Of a stretch of DNA of 64,000 bases, positions 10,231 through 49,284 are shown piece by piece. This DNA is from a virus (Duplodnaviria > Heunggongvirae > Uroviricota > Caudoviricetes). The notes beneath the pieces were generated by a model. It saw nothing but the letters and a program-made list of their open reading frames with translations. It was not told where the DNA came from and did no database searches. Each line of letters begins with the position of its first letter. Within the stretch, counting starts at the first letter, position 1. Position numbers and translations under genes: made by a program. The stretch is taken from the IMG/VR virus record IMGVR_UViG_3300027833_000012, positions 48,257 to 112,256 of that record. One strand, 5' to 3'.

Positions 10231-10413
10231 TTATTTTCTAAAAAATCCTGTCCAACCCAATGTCTTACCTTTTCTTCCCCTAGATTTAGGTCCTTCTTTT
10301 AAGTACCAACCACCTTTTTTTGATTTACTCTTATAAACATGTGTTTCTCTATCACTAAACATGTCAAGTAAATTTTCCCACATTTCTAACCAATCAAAAT
10401 CATCTTTTGCCAT
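10231..10413 (-). CDS. small basic protein
   Basis: 60-aa Lys/Arg-rich ORF. Confidence 0.3.
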   Translation of the reverse strand: MAKDDFDWLEMWENLLDMFSDRETHVYKSKSKKGGWYLKEGPKSRGRKGKTLGWTGFFRK

Positions 10414-18724: not shown

Positions 18725-18786
18725 ATATGTTTTGATTTACACAAATATAAGAAGAATTTATTTACTGTGCAAATTTAAAGTGAAGT
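18725..18786 (-). promoter_or_regulatory. promoter-bearing intergenic repeat, copy 3
   Basis: Identical core to copies 1 and 2; 5' of 18116..18715. Confidence 0.55.
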
Positions 18787-19552: not shown

Positions 19553-19630
19553 TGGTCCAGGTGAGACTCGAACTCACATGTGACCAAATTACGGTTTCAA
19601 CTGCTTATGAGGCAGAGCCGATACTGGACC
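19553..19630 (-). tRNA. tRNA-like gene with CAU (Met/Ile2-type) loop, non-canonical architecture
   Basis: Perfect 7-bp acceptor GGUCCAG/CUGGACC; T arm GUGAG-UUCGAGU-CUCAC. The CUGC-CUCAUAA-GCAG hairpin lies only 8 nt after the acceptor (no normal D arm), and 23 nt separate it from the T arm. Confidence 0.45.
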
Positions 19631-20039: not shown

Positions 20040-20157
20040 TGTAAGAAATAGGATTCGAACCTATGAATGATTACCTTCTCTGATAATCTCAGTATAACTA
20101 ATGTTAACATACCATTTTCAAGTACCCTGGTGCTTTCAACCACTCAGCCATTCTTAC
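20040..20157 (-). tRNA. 118-nt tRNA-like gene (Ser/Leu-type D arm) with about 30 nt of extra internal sequence
   Basis: Perfect acceptor GUAAGAA/UUCUUAC; D arm GCU-GAGUGGUUGAA-AGC; T arm AUAGG-UUCGAAU-CCUAU; no canonical anticodon arm located; contains the palindrome AUGUUAACAU. Confidence 0.4.
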
Positions 20158-21123: not shown

Positions 21124-21168
21124 GATGTTGAGTGAGGTTTTTACATTCACTTTATTTTGGGTGTTACC

Positions 21169-21241
21169 ACGGTATCGAGCCGAGTTCTTCAGATTCACAG
21201 TCTGACGCTTCACCTTAAAGCTTGAAACACCATATTTAATT
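21169..21241 (-). tRNA. second GUG-loop tRNA-like gene with degenerate T arm
   Basis: Anticodon arm UCAGA-CUGUGAA-UCUGA at canonical 27-43; acceptor 6/7; T loop CUCGAUA with a mismatched stem. Confidence 0.4.
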
Positions 21242-21765: not shown

Positions 21766-22197
21766 CTAAAAGTTATCTGATTTGTCAAGTTTTTTTGTAA
21801 AAACTTTTTCGTTTTGTACTAATTTTTTTATAAACGCCTCATTTTCAGCGTTTTTTAAATTACTACCATCATATTCATTTTCTAAATATTCTGTAATAGT
21901 GTTAGTTATTTCTTTTATAAGTTTAAAATTCTTAATTGATTTACTCTTGTACCATTGTGGGAAAAAAGTAGTTTTCATATCGAATAAACTTTCTGTTGAG
22001 TCAGCTTCAACTTCTTCAACTTTCATTCTAAAGTATTTTTCATCAAATCTAATTGATGCTACCATATTTTTATTATTATATTTAAATGGTATAACTTTGA
22101 ATAATTTTTTATTATCATCTAAGAATAAGTGTTTTGATGTTTTATTAACATATTCATTCATTCTTTTTGTCCAGTTTTCTAATTTTATATTTTCCAT
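21766..22197 (-). CDS. hypothetical protein
   Basis: 143 aa; the overlapping plus-strand ORF 21782..22213 is judged spurious. Confidence 0.45.
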   Translation of the reverse strand: MENIKLENWTKRMNEYVNKTSKHLFLDDNKKLFKVIPFKYNNKNMVASIRFDEKYFRMKVEEVEADSTESLFDMKTTFFPQWYKSKSIKNFKLIKEITNTITEYLENEYDGSNLKNAENEAFIKKLVQNEKVFTKKLDKSDNF

Positions 22198-22310: not shown

Positions 22311-22672
22311 TTACTGATTTTTATTAGTTAAATTATTTGTATTACCTAGTAGTGGTAATGAACTTACTAACTTTCTAGTCAATTCTGTAGGTTCAAATGC
22401 TACTGCTGTTATTTGGTCCCCTATATCGGGTTCTCTAAATACTGTATGGTTTATTCCCTTTACGTCAGCTTTTTCTATTAATTTTTCTAAGGATGCTTCA
22501 TCCTTTGCTGTTAGGAATATTAAATAATTCGATGTTGTATTCCAATCTTTAGCGTCTATCGGATTTTCTAATATGTAATCTGCGACTGCATGTCCACTTT
22601 GGACTGCTTGATATCCGATTGGAAGGTCTTTTCTTGTAACTACTGTTAACTTTTTGTTTTTAATCTAAGTCA
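22311..22672 (-). CDS. peptidyl-tRNA hydrolase, PTH2 family (not in ORF track; in-frame TAG at codon 3)
   Basis: ATG(22672-22670) ACT TAG(22666-22664), then an uninterrupted frame IKNKKLTVVTRKDLPIGYQAVQSGHAVADY...TAVAFEP matching the PTH2 core (VVRTDL, GKxAAQxxHA). The frame has no internal Met, so a Met-dependent ORF caller missed it. Confidence 0.6.
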
Positions 22673-22704
22673 TAACTTCTTAATTTATTTATTATTAATT
22701 TATC

Positions 22705-22781
22705 TGGTGCGAATAGTGGGAATCGAACCCACTACATCCGAGTTTAGAAGTCGGTACCCCAACCATTAGGGTCTTACTCGC
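22705..22781 (-). tRNA. candidate amber-suppressor tRNA (anticodon CUA) with encoded CCA
   Basis: GCGAGUA acceptor pairs UAUUCGC, then A and CCA. D arm CCC/GGG with G18G19. Anticodon stem CCGA/UCGG plus C-C closing pair and 7-nt loop UUCUAAA: U33, CUA at 34-36, A37 A38, as in supF-type loops. T arm GUGGG-UUCGAUU-CCCAC. Confidence 0.55.
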
Positions 22782-22813
22782 AGTTTTGATTAATCTTATT
22801 AGATTATCTTAAT

Positions 22814-22823
22814 ACAAAGATAC
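22814..22823 (-). promoter_or_regulatory. -7 promoter element (coding strand GTATCTTTGT, TAnnTTTG) upstream of the suppressor tRNA - Pth2 unit
   Basis: Plus-strand acaaagatac; same motif family as other intergenic promoters. Confidence 0.45.
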
Positions 22824-23007
22824 TACATATTTTTGGATTAATCAAGTTTTTTTTAAAAATAATTAAAAACTTATAATAGATTGTTATTTAACGATTTATA
22901 TTCGATTATATTATTTGTTTTTTTTTAAGTTATCCTAAGATTATCTTAATTCGTTTAAGTTAAACGTTGGGATACCATCAACTCTAATATGACCATAGAA
23001 TCTGTTG

Positions 23008-36458: not shown

Positions 36459-36500
36459 GTTGTTTAAACGTTTCTGTAAAAGGTACAAAAACGTGTCAAA

Positions 36501-36868
36501 TGTGGAGATGGAGGGGCTCGAACCCTCGTATCAACCTAAGCTTAAAAAGCTTTCTACATGTTTAGGTTAACATTTTTCTTATGTTCCAAAAATAGTTAAT
36601 TTTTTTATGGATACAAAAAACAAAATCCACTAACCATTTTTTTTAACATCACAAGGTTTAGTTTCGTGATGGTGGGCGAACCCACTACAATCATTTAGGC
36701 GAATGCTACCTCTCCTGATTCAACTTCTACAGAAGCGTTTTCAAGGAAATTTACGTCAATGTCAAACGAGTTGTCATCTAAAAAAATCGATAGGTTATTT
36801 AAGTGTTTCCATCTAACACTACATGCTTACAAGAAAAGTCATTAAGTGAGCAATTCCAAGTCATCCCC
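36501..36868 (-). ncRNA. ssrA: tmRNA-like (ssrA-like) RNA, about 368 nt
   Basis: 5' GGGGAUG pairs with 3' CAUCUCC (G3:U70 wobble, A73). T arm GAGGG-UUCGAGC-CCCUC. 5' segment ACUUGGAAUUGC resembles the tmRNA D-loop analogue. Internal tag-like frame ...ASVEVESGEVAFA-UAA (36736->36695). No ORF longer than 30 aa. Own promoter and terminator. Embedded UUCG tetraloop hairpin GUGGG-UUCG-CCCAC. Confidence 0.6.
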
Positions 36869-47217: not shown

Positions 47218-49284
47218 TTAAACATTACTTAACATAGAAAGGATAACTCCAGACATTATATGTGGTTGATAATATTCACCAGGTCTTCTGTCTTGTAATT
47301 TTTTAATGACTTGTGTTAACACTTCTTTTTTTGTGTTAAAATGACTATAAAACATACCTGGGTCATCACCAACAAATGAATTATAATAATCTTCCCCAGC
47401 ATCTTCATCATCATCAAAATTTTCATTTACACTGTTATCTGCTGATTTATTTCTAAGATTTTTTAAATCTTCACCATCAATATCACCATCTTTATCAGTA
47501 TCCATATTATCTGACTGCTTATCACTTAATTCCTCATCAATTGATTCAAGGCCTTCGAATATCTCATCAAATCTATCATTATCTTCACAATCCCCTTCTT
47601 CTTTAATTGGTAAATTAGGACTCTTAGGACCAGCATGTGTGTCATCACCTTTTTTACCCTTTACTGGTAAACCTTTAATAGTTTTACTATGGTTTTCTTC
47701 ATTATCACCATTTACTGGTAAACCTTTAATAGATGGTCCAGAGAATTCTTTAGTAGATTCAGTTAACATATTTGATGTTTTATTCACATTTTCCAATAGA
47801 ACTTTTGTCTTATTCAAAACATCTTTAAATGATGCATTTTCTGTTAATCTTTCACTACCCTTAAGTGTTCCAAGAGTCTCTTGTGATTTATAACCCATAA
47901 GGTGTTTCATATGATTCATGTTTTCACTAATCATATTTTTATCTTCAGCCTTTAAAATTACAGCTCTACCTTCATTTAATGAACCTTCCCATCTGATTTC
48001 ATAATTTTCATTACCGTCTGTCATTTGGAAAGTCTTATCATTTACTTTATAATTTTCTGGTATTAATTGTAAAGCTTTACCTACACCATTAAATGGTTTT
48101 TTAAATCTAAGTCTTTTCATTTTCGTTTCTTTTTTATAATTTTCTTGTATTTTATCTTGTTTAATTTCATCACTAAGTTTAATTAATTCTTTTTTTAACG
48201 TATTAAACTTAGTATATACTGGCCCAACTGCTTGATTACCGTCTTGTGAAAAAAACTTAGTTATTAAGTCTATAGCAGTATTTAAAGTGTTTCGTTCTTT
48301 TGGGTTTAATCCCATTTTAGCTAAATCTTTGCCAGTTTGTTTTGTATTTTTAACTAAATCAGTAGTTGATGTTGAATTATTAATTCCATCAACATCACCT
48401 TCGATAATTAACCTATAAGCTAATTCTTTTATTTGTTTTTTATTCATTGTTATATTTTTTTTACCTTTTGTCTCTAATAATTCATCTTGTAATTTACTAC
48501 TTAGTTTTTTTTTATTTAAATTAAATTTACCACTAAAATTTAATTTATATTGTTTAACTTTATCACCAACCTCATTCAAACTTTTTATTGTTGTATCCCA
48601 TAACCAACTATATTTATTTTTAAAAAAACCTAATAATTTATAAACTTCATCGAAACTATTACCACTCAATTTATTTAAATTAGTAAATACATCAGTAACA
48701 CCACTTAAGAAATCACCTTCAAACTCATTTAATATATTTTTTATCTTACTACCATCTAAGTTCTGTATAGAATCTTTAATCTTACTTACAACACCATTAA
48801 TAATTAAATTAACACTAGAGATTTTCTTGTTAATATATGATAACAATGTGTCTGTTATAATTGATATTAAAAATGTTAACCAACCATTATTAATTTTATC
48901 ATTTAAAAAACTTAATATCTTTTTTAAGTACTTACTTAAACCTTCTTTAAATTTAAGTAAAAATTTAAAACCACCTTCTATTTTATTATTTTTTAATTTA
49001 TTTATAATAATTTCTAAATTATTATCAAAAATATCAAACTCTTTAATTATAAGTTCTGATGACTTTTTTAATTTACTTGTAAAAAAGGTATTAACATCGT
49101 TAAGTAAATTAGGGTTATCTATTAAATTTTTAATTAATAACGCTATTTGACCTGGGGTTTTAACTACATCAACTACATTTTTTTTTGTTTTATCTGCCCA
49201 TTTTTTTAAGTCTTGATAGAATGCTTCTTTAATTAATTCCTCATTAATTAAAACCCTTAATTCTATATCACTATTAATAGACAT
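47218..49284 (-). CDS. large hypothetical protein (virion/internal protein candidate)
   Basis: 688 aa; acidic; C-terminal domain paralogous to that of 49292..50353. Confidence 0.45.
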   Translation of the reverse strand: MSINSDIELRVLINEELIKEAFYQDLKKWADKTKKNVVDVVKTPGQIALLIKNLIDNPNLLNDVNTFFTSKLKKSSELIIKEFDIFDNNLEIIINKLKNNKIEGGFKFLLKFKEGLSKYLKKILSFLNDKINNGWLTFLISIITDTLLSYINKKISSVNLIINGVVSKIKDSIQNLDGSKIKNILNEFEGDFLSGVTDVFTNLNKLSGNSFDEVYKLLGFFKNKYSWLWDTTIKSLNEVGDKVKQYKLNFSGKFNLNKKKLSSKLQDELLETKGKKNITMNKKQIKELAYRLIIEGDVDGINNSTSTTDLVKNTKQTGKDLAKMGLNPKERNTLNTAIDLITKFFSQDGNQAVGPVYTKFNTLKKELIKLSDEIKQDKIQENYKKETKMKRLRFKKPFNGVGKALQLIPENYKVNDKTFQMTDGNENYEIRWEGSLNEGRAVILKAEDKNMISENMNHMKHLMGYKSQETLGTLKGSERLTENASFKDVLNKTKVLLENVNKTSNMLTESTKEFSGPSIKGLPVNGDNEENHSKTIKGLPVKGKKGDDTHAGPKSPNLPIKEEGDCEDNDRFDEIFEGLESIDEELSDKQSDNMDTDKDGDIDGEDLKNLRNKSADNSVNENFDDDEDAGEDYYNSFVGDDPGMFYSHFNTKKEVLTQVIKKLQDRRPGEYYQPHIMSGVILSMLSNV

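Follow-up and report, generated by a model that had tools for sequence, protein, structure and literature searches.

How is a gene expressed when its third codon is a stop? The question is raised by a gene for a protein of the PTH2 family of peptidyl-tRNA hydrolases (Pth2), which lies in a 64-kb stretch of phage DNA, here called the window (positions 48,257 to 112,256 of IMG/VR record IMGVR_UViG_3300027833_000012); coordinates of the gene and its neighbors refer to the minus strand. The gene opens with ATG ACT TAG and then runs on in frame, and directly upstream lies a gene for a tRNA with the anticodon CUA, the type that reads amber (UAG) codons. We think it probable that the two constitute a module of a large marine phage in which the synthesis of Pth2 depends on suppression at the TAG, so that the tRNA and its target form a feed-forward gate; a start codon soon followed by an in-frame TAG will be called gated. 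Because dozens of large phages with an otherwise standard genetic code (code 11), cultured ones among them, show the same pairing, it looks like a natural suppressor-dependent gene switch, and comparison of the sequences extends the finding from one locus to what appears to be a conserved module of large phages.

The tRNA gene is well formed, with the stems and loops that a first-pass annotation of the window had ascribed to it. ARAGORN reports a 77-nt tRNA with the anticodon CTA, and the Rfam tRNA model (RF00005) matches over its full length at 46.6 bits, against a gathering score of 29. The acceptor stem has 7 bp (GCGAGUA/UAUUCGC), and G18G19, the T arm GUGGG-UUCGAUU-CCCAC, A73, and an encoded CCA are all present. 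In the Infernal alignment the anticodon loop is the 7-nt UUCUAAA, with CUA at positions 34-36, U33 before it, and a purine at position 37, which is what an amber suppressor should have; neither program assigns a sense anticodon. The only non-standard feature flagged by Infernal is the pair that closes the anticodon stem, C31.C39, already described as a C-C pair in the first-pass annotation.

A PTH2 gene without a Met, overlooked by the open reading frame (ORF) caller, had been predicted downstream of this tRNA, and the prediction holds. Pfam PF01981 matches the frame above threshold (E = 4e-8, 33.9 bits against a cutoff of 23), residues 5-95 aligning with profile positions 2-104 of 115, and the profile begins right after the TAG. 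A profile made from seven phage homologues matches solved PTH2 structures over nearly their full length (2zv3, E = 3e-7; also 24bt, 1rzw/3erj, 1wn2, and 1q7s, the human Bit1/PTH2). The first ATG, GTG, or TTG after the TAG comes 94 codons into the frame, and since there is no early canonical start, gene callers that apply code 11 skip Pth2 in every contig of this phage. The codon order ATG, ACT, TAG had been read correctly, with coordinates one base off (the ATG is at 22673-22671 and the TAG at 22667-22665), and the gene is nearly adjacent to the tRNA as proposed, across a spacer of 31 nt, not 32. The first codon after the TAG is ATT (22664-22662). A frameshift past the TAG was considered and rejected; the +1 frame, read from the sequence, meets a stop within 8 codons. 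Judged by its upstream context, the gene is more likely to start at the ATG than at the ATT. On a matrix derived from the 22 nt that precede 71 ATG starts in the window, the ATG scores 7.27 (86th percentile of true starts), a value that essentially none of 5000 random positions reaches, and the ATT scores -4.45 (8th percentile). The features of the locus are collected in Table 1.

Table 1. The tRNA(CUA)-Pth2 locus of the window, and the starts of Pth2 in three uncultured phages
Feature	Position	Strand	Basis or sequence
-33-like element CTTG, Bacteroidetes-type promoter	22843..22846	-	aaaaaaCTTG, 20 nt, then TATCTTTG
-7 box TATCTTTG (TAnnTTTG type), 33 nt upstream of the tRNA 5' end	22815..22822	-	motif counts
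tRNA, anticodon CUA, amber-suppressor type	22705..22781	-	ARAGORN; Rfam tRNA 46.6 bits
31-nt A/T-rich spacer, Pth2 translation-initiation region	22674..22704	-	sequence; upstream-context matrix
Start ATG and one sense codon, ACT (leader Met-Thr)	22668..22673	-	ATG 22673-22671, ACT 22670-22668
In-frame TAG at codon 3, candidate amber gate	22665..22667	-	conserved in 58/74 unique homologues
PTH2 coding sequence after the TAG, 117 codons, IKNKKLTVVTRKDL..., and TAA 22313-22311	22311..22664	-	Pfam PF01981
143-aa ORF	21766..22197	-	ends at TAG 21768-21766; next -7 box 21765-21758; no Pfam match
LR756500 Pth2 start			ATG AAG TAG ATT
LR745206 Pth2 start			ATG AAC AAT TAG ATT
LR756501 Pth2 start			ATG TCG TAG ATT

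The closing C.C pair bears on whether tRNA and gene are linked at all. If the pair is discounted, a 4-bp stem and a 9-nt loop remain, and the tRNA could be regarded as defective, or as an Arg(UCU)-type tRNA with an odd loop, standing beside a Pth2 that is a decaying pseudogene; GenBank does list similar tRNAs of the mycobacteriophages Catera and Myrna as tRNA-Arg and tRNA-Ser, and a gene skipped by code-11 callers in every contig of the phage might be taken for a decayed one. We give this explanation very little credence. ARAGORN and Infernal both call CUA; the register that would place UCU in the loop leaves a much poorer stem when read directly from the sequence, as the first-pass annotation had argued, and the window already carries two normal tRNA-Arg(UCU) genes (ARAGORN). 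Moreover, a non-Watson-Crick 31.39 pair (C.A, A.C, C.C, or C.U) is found in 26 of 58 unique CUA tRNAs (45%) but in only 39 of 235 other phage tRNAs (17%; p = 1.4e-5). Because the mismatch is so much commoner among CUA tRNAs, the C.C pair of the window tRNA reads as a trait of its class and not as a defect, and it may be that a weaker anticodon stem serves a function in that class. The 58 tRNAs, which come from loci L001-L108 of our collection (loci are cited by their L numbers), are very diverse in sequence. Pth2, for its part, is open for 117 codons and keeps its invariant motifs, and the locus is the same from sample to sample: four further contigs from metagenomes (L109 and L111-L113), all from this phage, have the tRNA and the gate 100% conserved, and the tRNA is identical in an insertion variant (L110) as well. 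These conservation data largely refute the absence of a link.

The key evidence comes from the homologues of Pth2. From 80 IMG/VR loci and 14 metagenome loci we obtained 74 unique genes of this Pth2 clade; the relatives found in the metagenome scan are all at most 52% identical. Fifty-eight of the 74 have a start codon followed by an early in-frame TAG, with one (31 cases), two (18), three (7), or six (2) sense codons between them, while the remaining 8,669 codons of the homologues contain only 8 TAGs. The early stop is always TAG, never TAA or TGA. It has been retained among gated genes whose identity falls to 32% (median 50%) and which use 18 different codons at position 2. The best GenBank relatives, all from huge uncultured phages, start in the gated form without exception (Table 1). 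Ungated homologues belong mainly to one higher-GC clade, with starts such as MATIK... and MAIK.... Gating is also associated with the tRNA: of 66 gated loci, 52 have a CUA tRNA on the same strand no more than 3 kb away, as against 4 of 21 ungated ones (Fisher p = 1.4e-6, which is only indicative since the loci are related to one another). All 58 gated genes have a purine (48 A, 10 G) next to the TAG on its 3' side. Such a purine is the classical context preference for amber suppression, and the observation fits this preference; it also fits the Ile, Val, or Thr that the protein has at this position.

Much of this has to be set against a second explanation, in which ATG-ACT-TAG is a mini-ORF that terminates, the ribosome restarts at the ATT (Ile), and the CUA tRNA serves elsewhere. 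AUU is a weak start codon in bacteria, for example in E. coli infC, and the window gene and 33 of the 58 gated homologues have ATT directly behind the TAG, with ATA or ATC in 6 more. In Catera and Myrna, where the starts of Pth2 read ATG TAG GTG and GTG TAG GTG, the annotated start is the GTG right after the TAG; the spacing of the Shine-Dalgarno sequence suits this GTG, so that the TAG probably does not belong to the ORF in these two phages. Even so, we consider reinitiation unlikely as a general account. Nineteen of the 58 gated genes have a post-TAG codon that is no possible initiator (GTT, GTA, AAC, ACT, ACA, AAA, AGC, GGC, AAT, or GAA), and 51 of the 58 have no canonical start before the conserved core. 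The Ile itself is conserved in ungated relatives (the MATIK... and MAIK... proteins), which indicates that it reflects the protein and not a start signal. In the window the initiation context matches the ATG, not the ATT, and in L003, L006, L007, and the Xanthomonas and Stenotrophomonas phages XacN1 and RAS14 the Shine-Dalgarno sequence precedes the ATG by 5-9 nt and the post-TAG codon by 14-18 nt. Finally, reinitiation leaves unexplained both the exclusive use of TAG and its co-occurrence with a CUA tRNA. The conserved TAG, the non-initiator codons after it, the start context, and the co-occurring tRNA together favor read-through by the neighboring tRNA over initiation at the ATT.

A suppressor tRNA beside an in-frame TAG could also mean that TAG is reassigned genome-wide (code 15), with many late genes outside the window recoded and the TAG of Pth2 one among many. 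TAG-recoded phages with suppressor tRNAs are well documented (bioRxiv 10.1101/2021.08.26.457843; PMC7162821). Some relatives have extra internal TAGs, in Pth2 (L003, L004) or in neighboring genes (L006), and the genome of this phage is at least 222 kb long, of which our examination of TAG usage covered about 84 kb. Within those 84 kb, however, the code appears to be standard. By a crude six-frame count, long code-11 ORFs cover about 60 kb of the 64-kb window. Neither the window nor about 20 kb of flanking sequence (L088, L092), which includes large genes upstream, contains a TAG with at least 60 open codons on both sides. Seven genes of the window stop at TAG, and read-through would add only 3-17 codons to them. 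One is the 132-aa DHFR, for which the first-pass annotation had rightly called TAG a normal stop (10418-10416); continuation through this TAG was rejected, as the protein ends with its last strand and the next ORF begins at 10413 in another frame. In the window, only at Pth2 does ATG-x(1-4)-TAG lead into a long ORF (100 codons or more) that lies outside any longer gene. Other in-frame TAGs just upstream of long ORFs in the window are in no case preceded by ATG-x, and a control with TAA and TGA gave one TAA case, which at 31 codons barely passed the threshold of 30 codons free of a canonical start. We also considered TAGATTAA as a general motif and dismissed it, as it is not enriched in the window (9 found, 11.6 expected). 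As far as seen, then, TAG is not generally reassigned in this phage.

The complete 462,018-bp genome of the relative LR756500 permits the same examination on a larger scale. Long code-11 ORFs make up 94% of its sequence by a crude count, and 33 of them end in TAG. Eight candidate internal TAGs are off-frame artefacts or gene junctions, which leaves no other unambiguous in-frame TAG, and every ATG-x-TAG start other than that of Pth2 has a canonical start within 30 codons; with TAA or TGA in place of TAG, the test gave no case in this genome. One of its 26 tRNAs (there is also a transfer-messenger RNA, tmRNA) has the anticodon CUA, and Pth2 lies 776 nt from it. LR756500 is a standard-code genome, and Pth2 is its only gene that clearly needs TAG to be decoded. 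The 3 kb on each side of Pth2 are likewise without internal TAGs in most low-GC IMG/VR loci, and the structural genes of the cultured Acinetobacter phage vB_AbaM_ME3 are intact under code 11. Random recoding, moreover, would not place a TAG at codon 3-4 in 58 genes and only 8 TAGs in 8,669 other codons. On these grounds genome-wide reassignment seems to us improbable.

ME3 is one of several cultured phages that show the same start. It has four tRNA genes (PMC5000817), of which one, annotated as "tRNA-OTHER, anticodon CTA," is about 450 nt upstream of a PTH2-like gene. The context of that gene is ATG ACT TAG ATT CAT..., its first four codons being identical to those of the window Pth2, and GenBank starts it (gp266) at a GTG inside the conserved core. 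In XacN1 (ORF364, L127 1940-2800) and RAS14 (L129 1940-2800) the PTH2-like domain is fused to an HD-like domain, and both fusions are preceded by a Shine-Dalgarno sequence and ATG AAG TAG ACC; the GenBank start of ORF364 is downstream of its gate, and the annotated start in RAS14 is a GTG inside the conserved region. XacN1 has two CUA tRNAs for which no target gene was identified, the authors having tested read-through at 18 gene-end amber stops (PMC5852040). In Catera and Myrna, Pth2 lies inside a tRNA array and is followed by a tRNA that ARAGORN reads as CUA (L126 3105-3178 and L125 2966-3037), and which GenBank lists under Arg and Ser, respectively; it shares with the window tRNA the anticodon arm NNNN-C-UUCUAA(A/C)-C-NNNN, including C31.C39, and the acceptor start GCGAG.

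The gate is not strictly specific to Pth2, although Pth2 is its commonest carrier, since two other kinds of gene also begin with a start, x, and TAG. The HD-like gene of LR745206 (L002 3998-4588) begins ATG AAT ACT TAG ATT, with the GenBank start downstream. A family of about 85 aa, encoded directly downstream of Pth2 and without a Pfam match (..IVFHFNKKHLEDPTIPMWV..GFSTKETP..TKGS..), starts M-x-TAG-I/N in at least 6 loci, including L014, L054, L057, L070, L079, and L084.

The first-pass annotation had placed a -7 promoter motif just upstream of the tRNA. It is there (TATCTTTG), with CTTG 20 nt before it (Table 1), and it belongs to a recurrent type. The gene strand of the window has 33 boxes of the form TAT[AC]TTTG, as against 6 on the opposite strand. 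Of these 33, 24 fall between genes, and for 21 the start of a gene, tRNA, or tmRNA follows within 80 nt; [AC]TTG stands about 19-20 nt before most of the intergenic ones. Since these promoters are Bacteroidetes-type, they suggest that the host of the phage belongs to the Bacteroidota. The 31-nt spacer between the tRNA and Pth2 contains no -7 box and no terminator-like site was found there, and we infer that both are probably transcribed from the one promoter. A scan for sigma-70 promoters gave counts below the shuffle expectation and a scan for intrinsic terminators gave none; neither was informative. The 143-aa ORF downstream of Pth2 is probably the last gene of the unit. Weak homologues of it lie directly downstream of Pth2 in L015 and L017; apart from these, the genes that flank Pth2 in the window are not conserved beside Pth2 elsewhere.

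We envisage the following sequence of events. The promoter with its -7 box at 22822-22815 would give rise to a transcript that carries tRNA(CUA) first and the Pth2 message 31 nt later. A ribosome starting at ATG 22673 would add Thr and meet UAG at codon 3, where the action of host RF1 or peptidyl-tRNA drop-off would leave only a dipeptide. Once processed and charged, the phage tRNA should decode the UAG in competition with RF1, and the product would be a 119-residue PTH2-type peptidyl-tRNA hydrolase. Since Pth2 output would need both transcription and suppression, the arrangement would constitute a coherent feed-forward (AND) gate, tying the amount of a tRNA-recycling enzyme to suppressor activity, and failed attempts would be cheap because the stop comes at codon 3-4. 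A plausible purpose is to match the amount of enzyme to the activity of the suppressor, or to hold the enzyme back until suppression is under way. The gate would also provide an otherwise orphan suppressor tRNA with a target in the genome of a standard-code jumbo phage.

Several observations weigh against a suppression-dependent Pth2. Besides its C31.C39 mismatch, the tRNA has A8/U14. The amino acid that it carries is poorly indicated by its nearest neighbors among 235 labelled phage tRNAs, the labels being weak and scattered. Further TAG-containing genes are possible in a genome of at least 222 kb, of which about 84 kb was covered. A weak start codon, AUU, AUA, or AUC, comes right after the TAG in the window gene and in 39 of the 58 gated homologues, so that reinitiation is possible in these. 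A CUA tRNA also adjoins ungated Pth2 genes, in L075, L086, Catera, and Myrna, and the link between tRNA and Pth2 is therefore broader than gating; it hints at a further functional tie between the two. Lastly, there is the activity of the protein. The active site of archaeal Pth2 is reported to comprise a Lys in a GK(G)K segment and an Asp in a D-A-G segment. In the phage clade an invariant Asp (D80, in an EPD motif) aligns near the DAG region, but the lysine segment aligns to an invariant G-Y with a gap, and peptidyl-tRNA hydrolase activity of the phage Pth2 is an assumption on our part.

Two hints bear on the amino acid inserted at the TAG, which is possibly Gln: a single internal TAG aligns with Gln (L004 versus L006), and the position of the gate is a CAA codon in L075 and L086. 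In XacN1, a gene annotated as a glutamyl-tRNA amidotransferase (ORF360, L127 330-773) precedes the gated HD-PTH2 gene by about 1.2 kb and may bear on the amino acid carried by the suppressor.

We suggest more tentatively, as a serious possibility that falls somewhat short of a probable one, that tRNA(CUA) and an N-terminally amber-gated Pth2 make up a self-contained circuit distributed among standard-code jumbo phages, from those of marine Bacteroidota to those of Acinetobacter, Xanthomonas, and Stenotrophomonas. Some phages would also gate an HD-domain gene or the small gene downstream of Pth2, and the gate would be the main or only target of the suppressor in the genome. Such a circuit would explain the orphan suppressor tRNAs of jumbo phages and could be a selectable first step before genome-wide recoding of TAG; the gate may sense the balance between RF1 and suppressor and so set the level of a tRNA-rescue enzyme.

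Two classical systems are related in design. E. coli prfB has a UGA at codon 26 that is passed by +1 frameshifting, and the early stop reports on the termination machinery. The bar minigenes of lambda are free-standing units of a start, one or two codons, and a stop; they cause peptidyl-tRNA drop-off, which Pth must clear, and their toxicity depends on Pth. The gated gene resembles prfB in having a stop a few codons into a gene for a translation factor, but it would use a suppressor tRNA in place of frameshifting, and feedback from Pth2 activity to its own gate is not evident. It begins with a start-Thr-stop unit like that of a bar minigene but, unlike bar, runs on in frame into a conserved ORF of 117 codons.

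Among phages the nearest comparison is with the Lak, crAss-like, and other gut phages of code 15, in which suppressor tRNAs have been proposed to switch on late genes (Ivanova 2014; bioRxiv 10.1101/2021.08.26.457843; PMC9523058). Like them, the phage of the window combines its own tRNA(CUA) with a standard-code host, an in-frame TAG proposed to need the suppressor, and a low use of TAG as a stop. In code 15 phages, however, many TAGs are spread over many, mostly late genes, and coding density collapses under code 11; here coding density is normal under code 11, and a single TAG stands at codon 3-4 of a small translation-maintenance gene beside the tRNA. XacN1 is similar in being a standard-code jumbo phage with a large tRNA set, a CUA tRNA, and a PTH2-type gene, but its authors looked beyond amber stops at the ends of genes (PMC5852040), whereas the target proposed here is at the start of one. 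The PTH2 proteins of jumbo phages and cluster C mycobacteriophages are of the same family and are likewise encoded among genes for tRNAs, tmRNA, and RNA repair. Iyer et al. 2021 (PMC7824862) placed PTH2 in tRNA repair and ribosome rescue, and a search of their text brought up neither an amber codon nor a suppressor-tRNA link.

A synthetic counterpart exists in the "leak dampener" of E. coli, in which one promoter drives a suppressor tRNA together with a target that contains premature stops (Ho et al., NAR 2021; PMC7969014). There, too, output requires transcription and suppression together, and the circuit works in E. coli. The synthetic design is described as containing a hammerhead ribozyme (PMC7969014), which we take to free the tRNA from the transcript; the natural module would instead rely on RNase P and host 3' processing. 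It also differs in gating a tRNA-recycling enzyme.

The papers by Borges and Al-Shayeb, that of Iyer, and those on XacN1 and ME3 describe neither an N-terminal amber codon in Pth2 nor a link to a suppressor tRNA, and our full-text literature searches found no prior description, an absence that is no proof because many subscription papers lie outside their coverage. If our interpretation is correct, the gate supplies a concrete in-genome target for the amber-suppressor tRNAs of standard-code jumbo phages, of which the authors of the XacN1 study reported none. It would be a natural translational switch that depends on suppression at a single codon, a design that synthetic biologists have built independently. 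It further suggests that a suppressor tRNA can be kept under selection before the genome is recoded, which bears on the origin of alternative codes in phages. The analysis also exposes a systematic annotation error: code-11 callers skip Pth2 or start it inside the conserved core (ME3 gp266, RAS14), and some CUA tRNAs are labelled Arg, Ser, or OTHER. Since the same start is found in the cultured phages ME3 (of Acinetobacter baumannii), XacN1, and RAS14, the idea is directly testable.

The window as a whole has a G+C content of 28.5%, and its minus strand carries nearly all genes. Matches to PHROG and Pfam, together with precomputed ones, identify an SbcC-like nuclease, a DNA ligase, DHFR, two RNA ligases, kinase/phosphatase domains, a CCA-adding enzyme, and a sigma factor. 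ARAGORN finds 11 tRNAs and a tmRNA, and Rfam adds three tRNA-like matches. Given its tRNAs, tmRNA, and RNA-repair genes, the window belongs to a large phage that has an island for translation and RNA repair. By exact-protein matches this phage occurs in several metagenomes of marine origin, one of its contigs there being a 222,253-bp TARA Oceans scaffold (ERZ2783015 scaffold_96); megablast and blastn searches of GenBank phages with the region and with the tRNA gave no match, and an exact 53-mer had no counterpart in IMG/VR. The insertion variant mentioned above (L110 3823-4447; ENA ERZ26695902 ctg116813) is a strain variant with an insertion of about 577 bp straight after codon 9 of Pth2, at about 22646 in the window. 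The insertion encodes three repeats of a zinc-finger-like unit, CPxHGxF...GSGCPxC (precomputed Pfam DUF723), and is fused in frame to Pth2 from VVTRKDLP onward; the start segment ATGACTTAGATT is duplicated too.

Elsewhere in the window, the tmRNA (36500-36868, minus strand; Rfam, 64.5 bits) encodes the tag peptide DNSFDIDVNFLENASVEVESGEVAFA and has its own promoter, CTTG / TATATTTG at 36910-36903. Three near-identical 38-nt promoter copies, (t/a)ttaaatttgcacagtaaataaattcttctTATATTTG, stand at 18749, 18090, and 16925 on the minus strand before three consecutive small genes. In the Prevotella phage Lak-B4, a tRNA with the anticodon UUA, of the ochre-suppressor type (L128 1841-1913), lies about 500 nt upstream of a PTH2-like open frame and about 590 nt before the matched PTH2 region; this gene has no N-terminal TAG. 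The tRNA-like sequences of the window that Rfam reports and ARAGORN misses are at 20040-20157, 21160-21230, and 19553-19630, all on the minus strand, and the first of them, which spans 118 nt, may contain an insertion or an intron.

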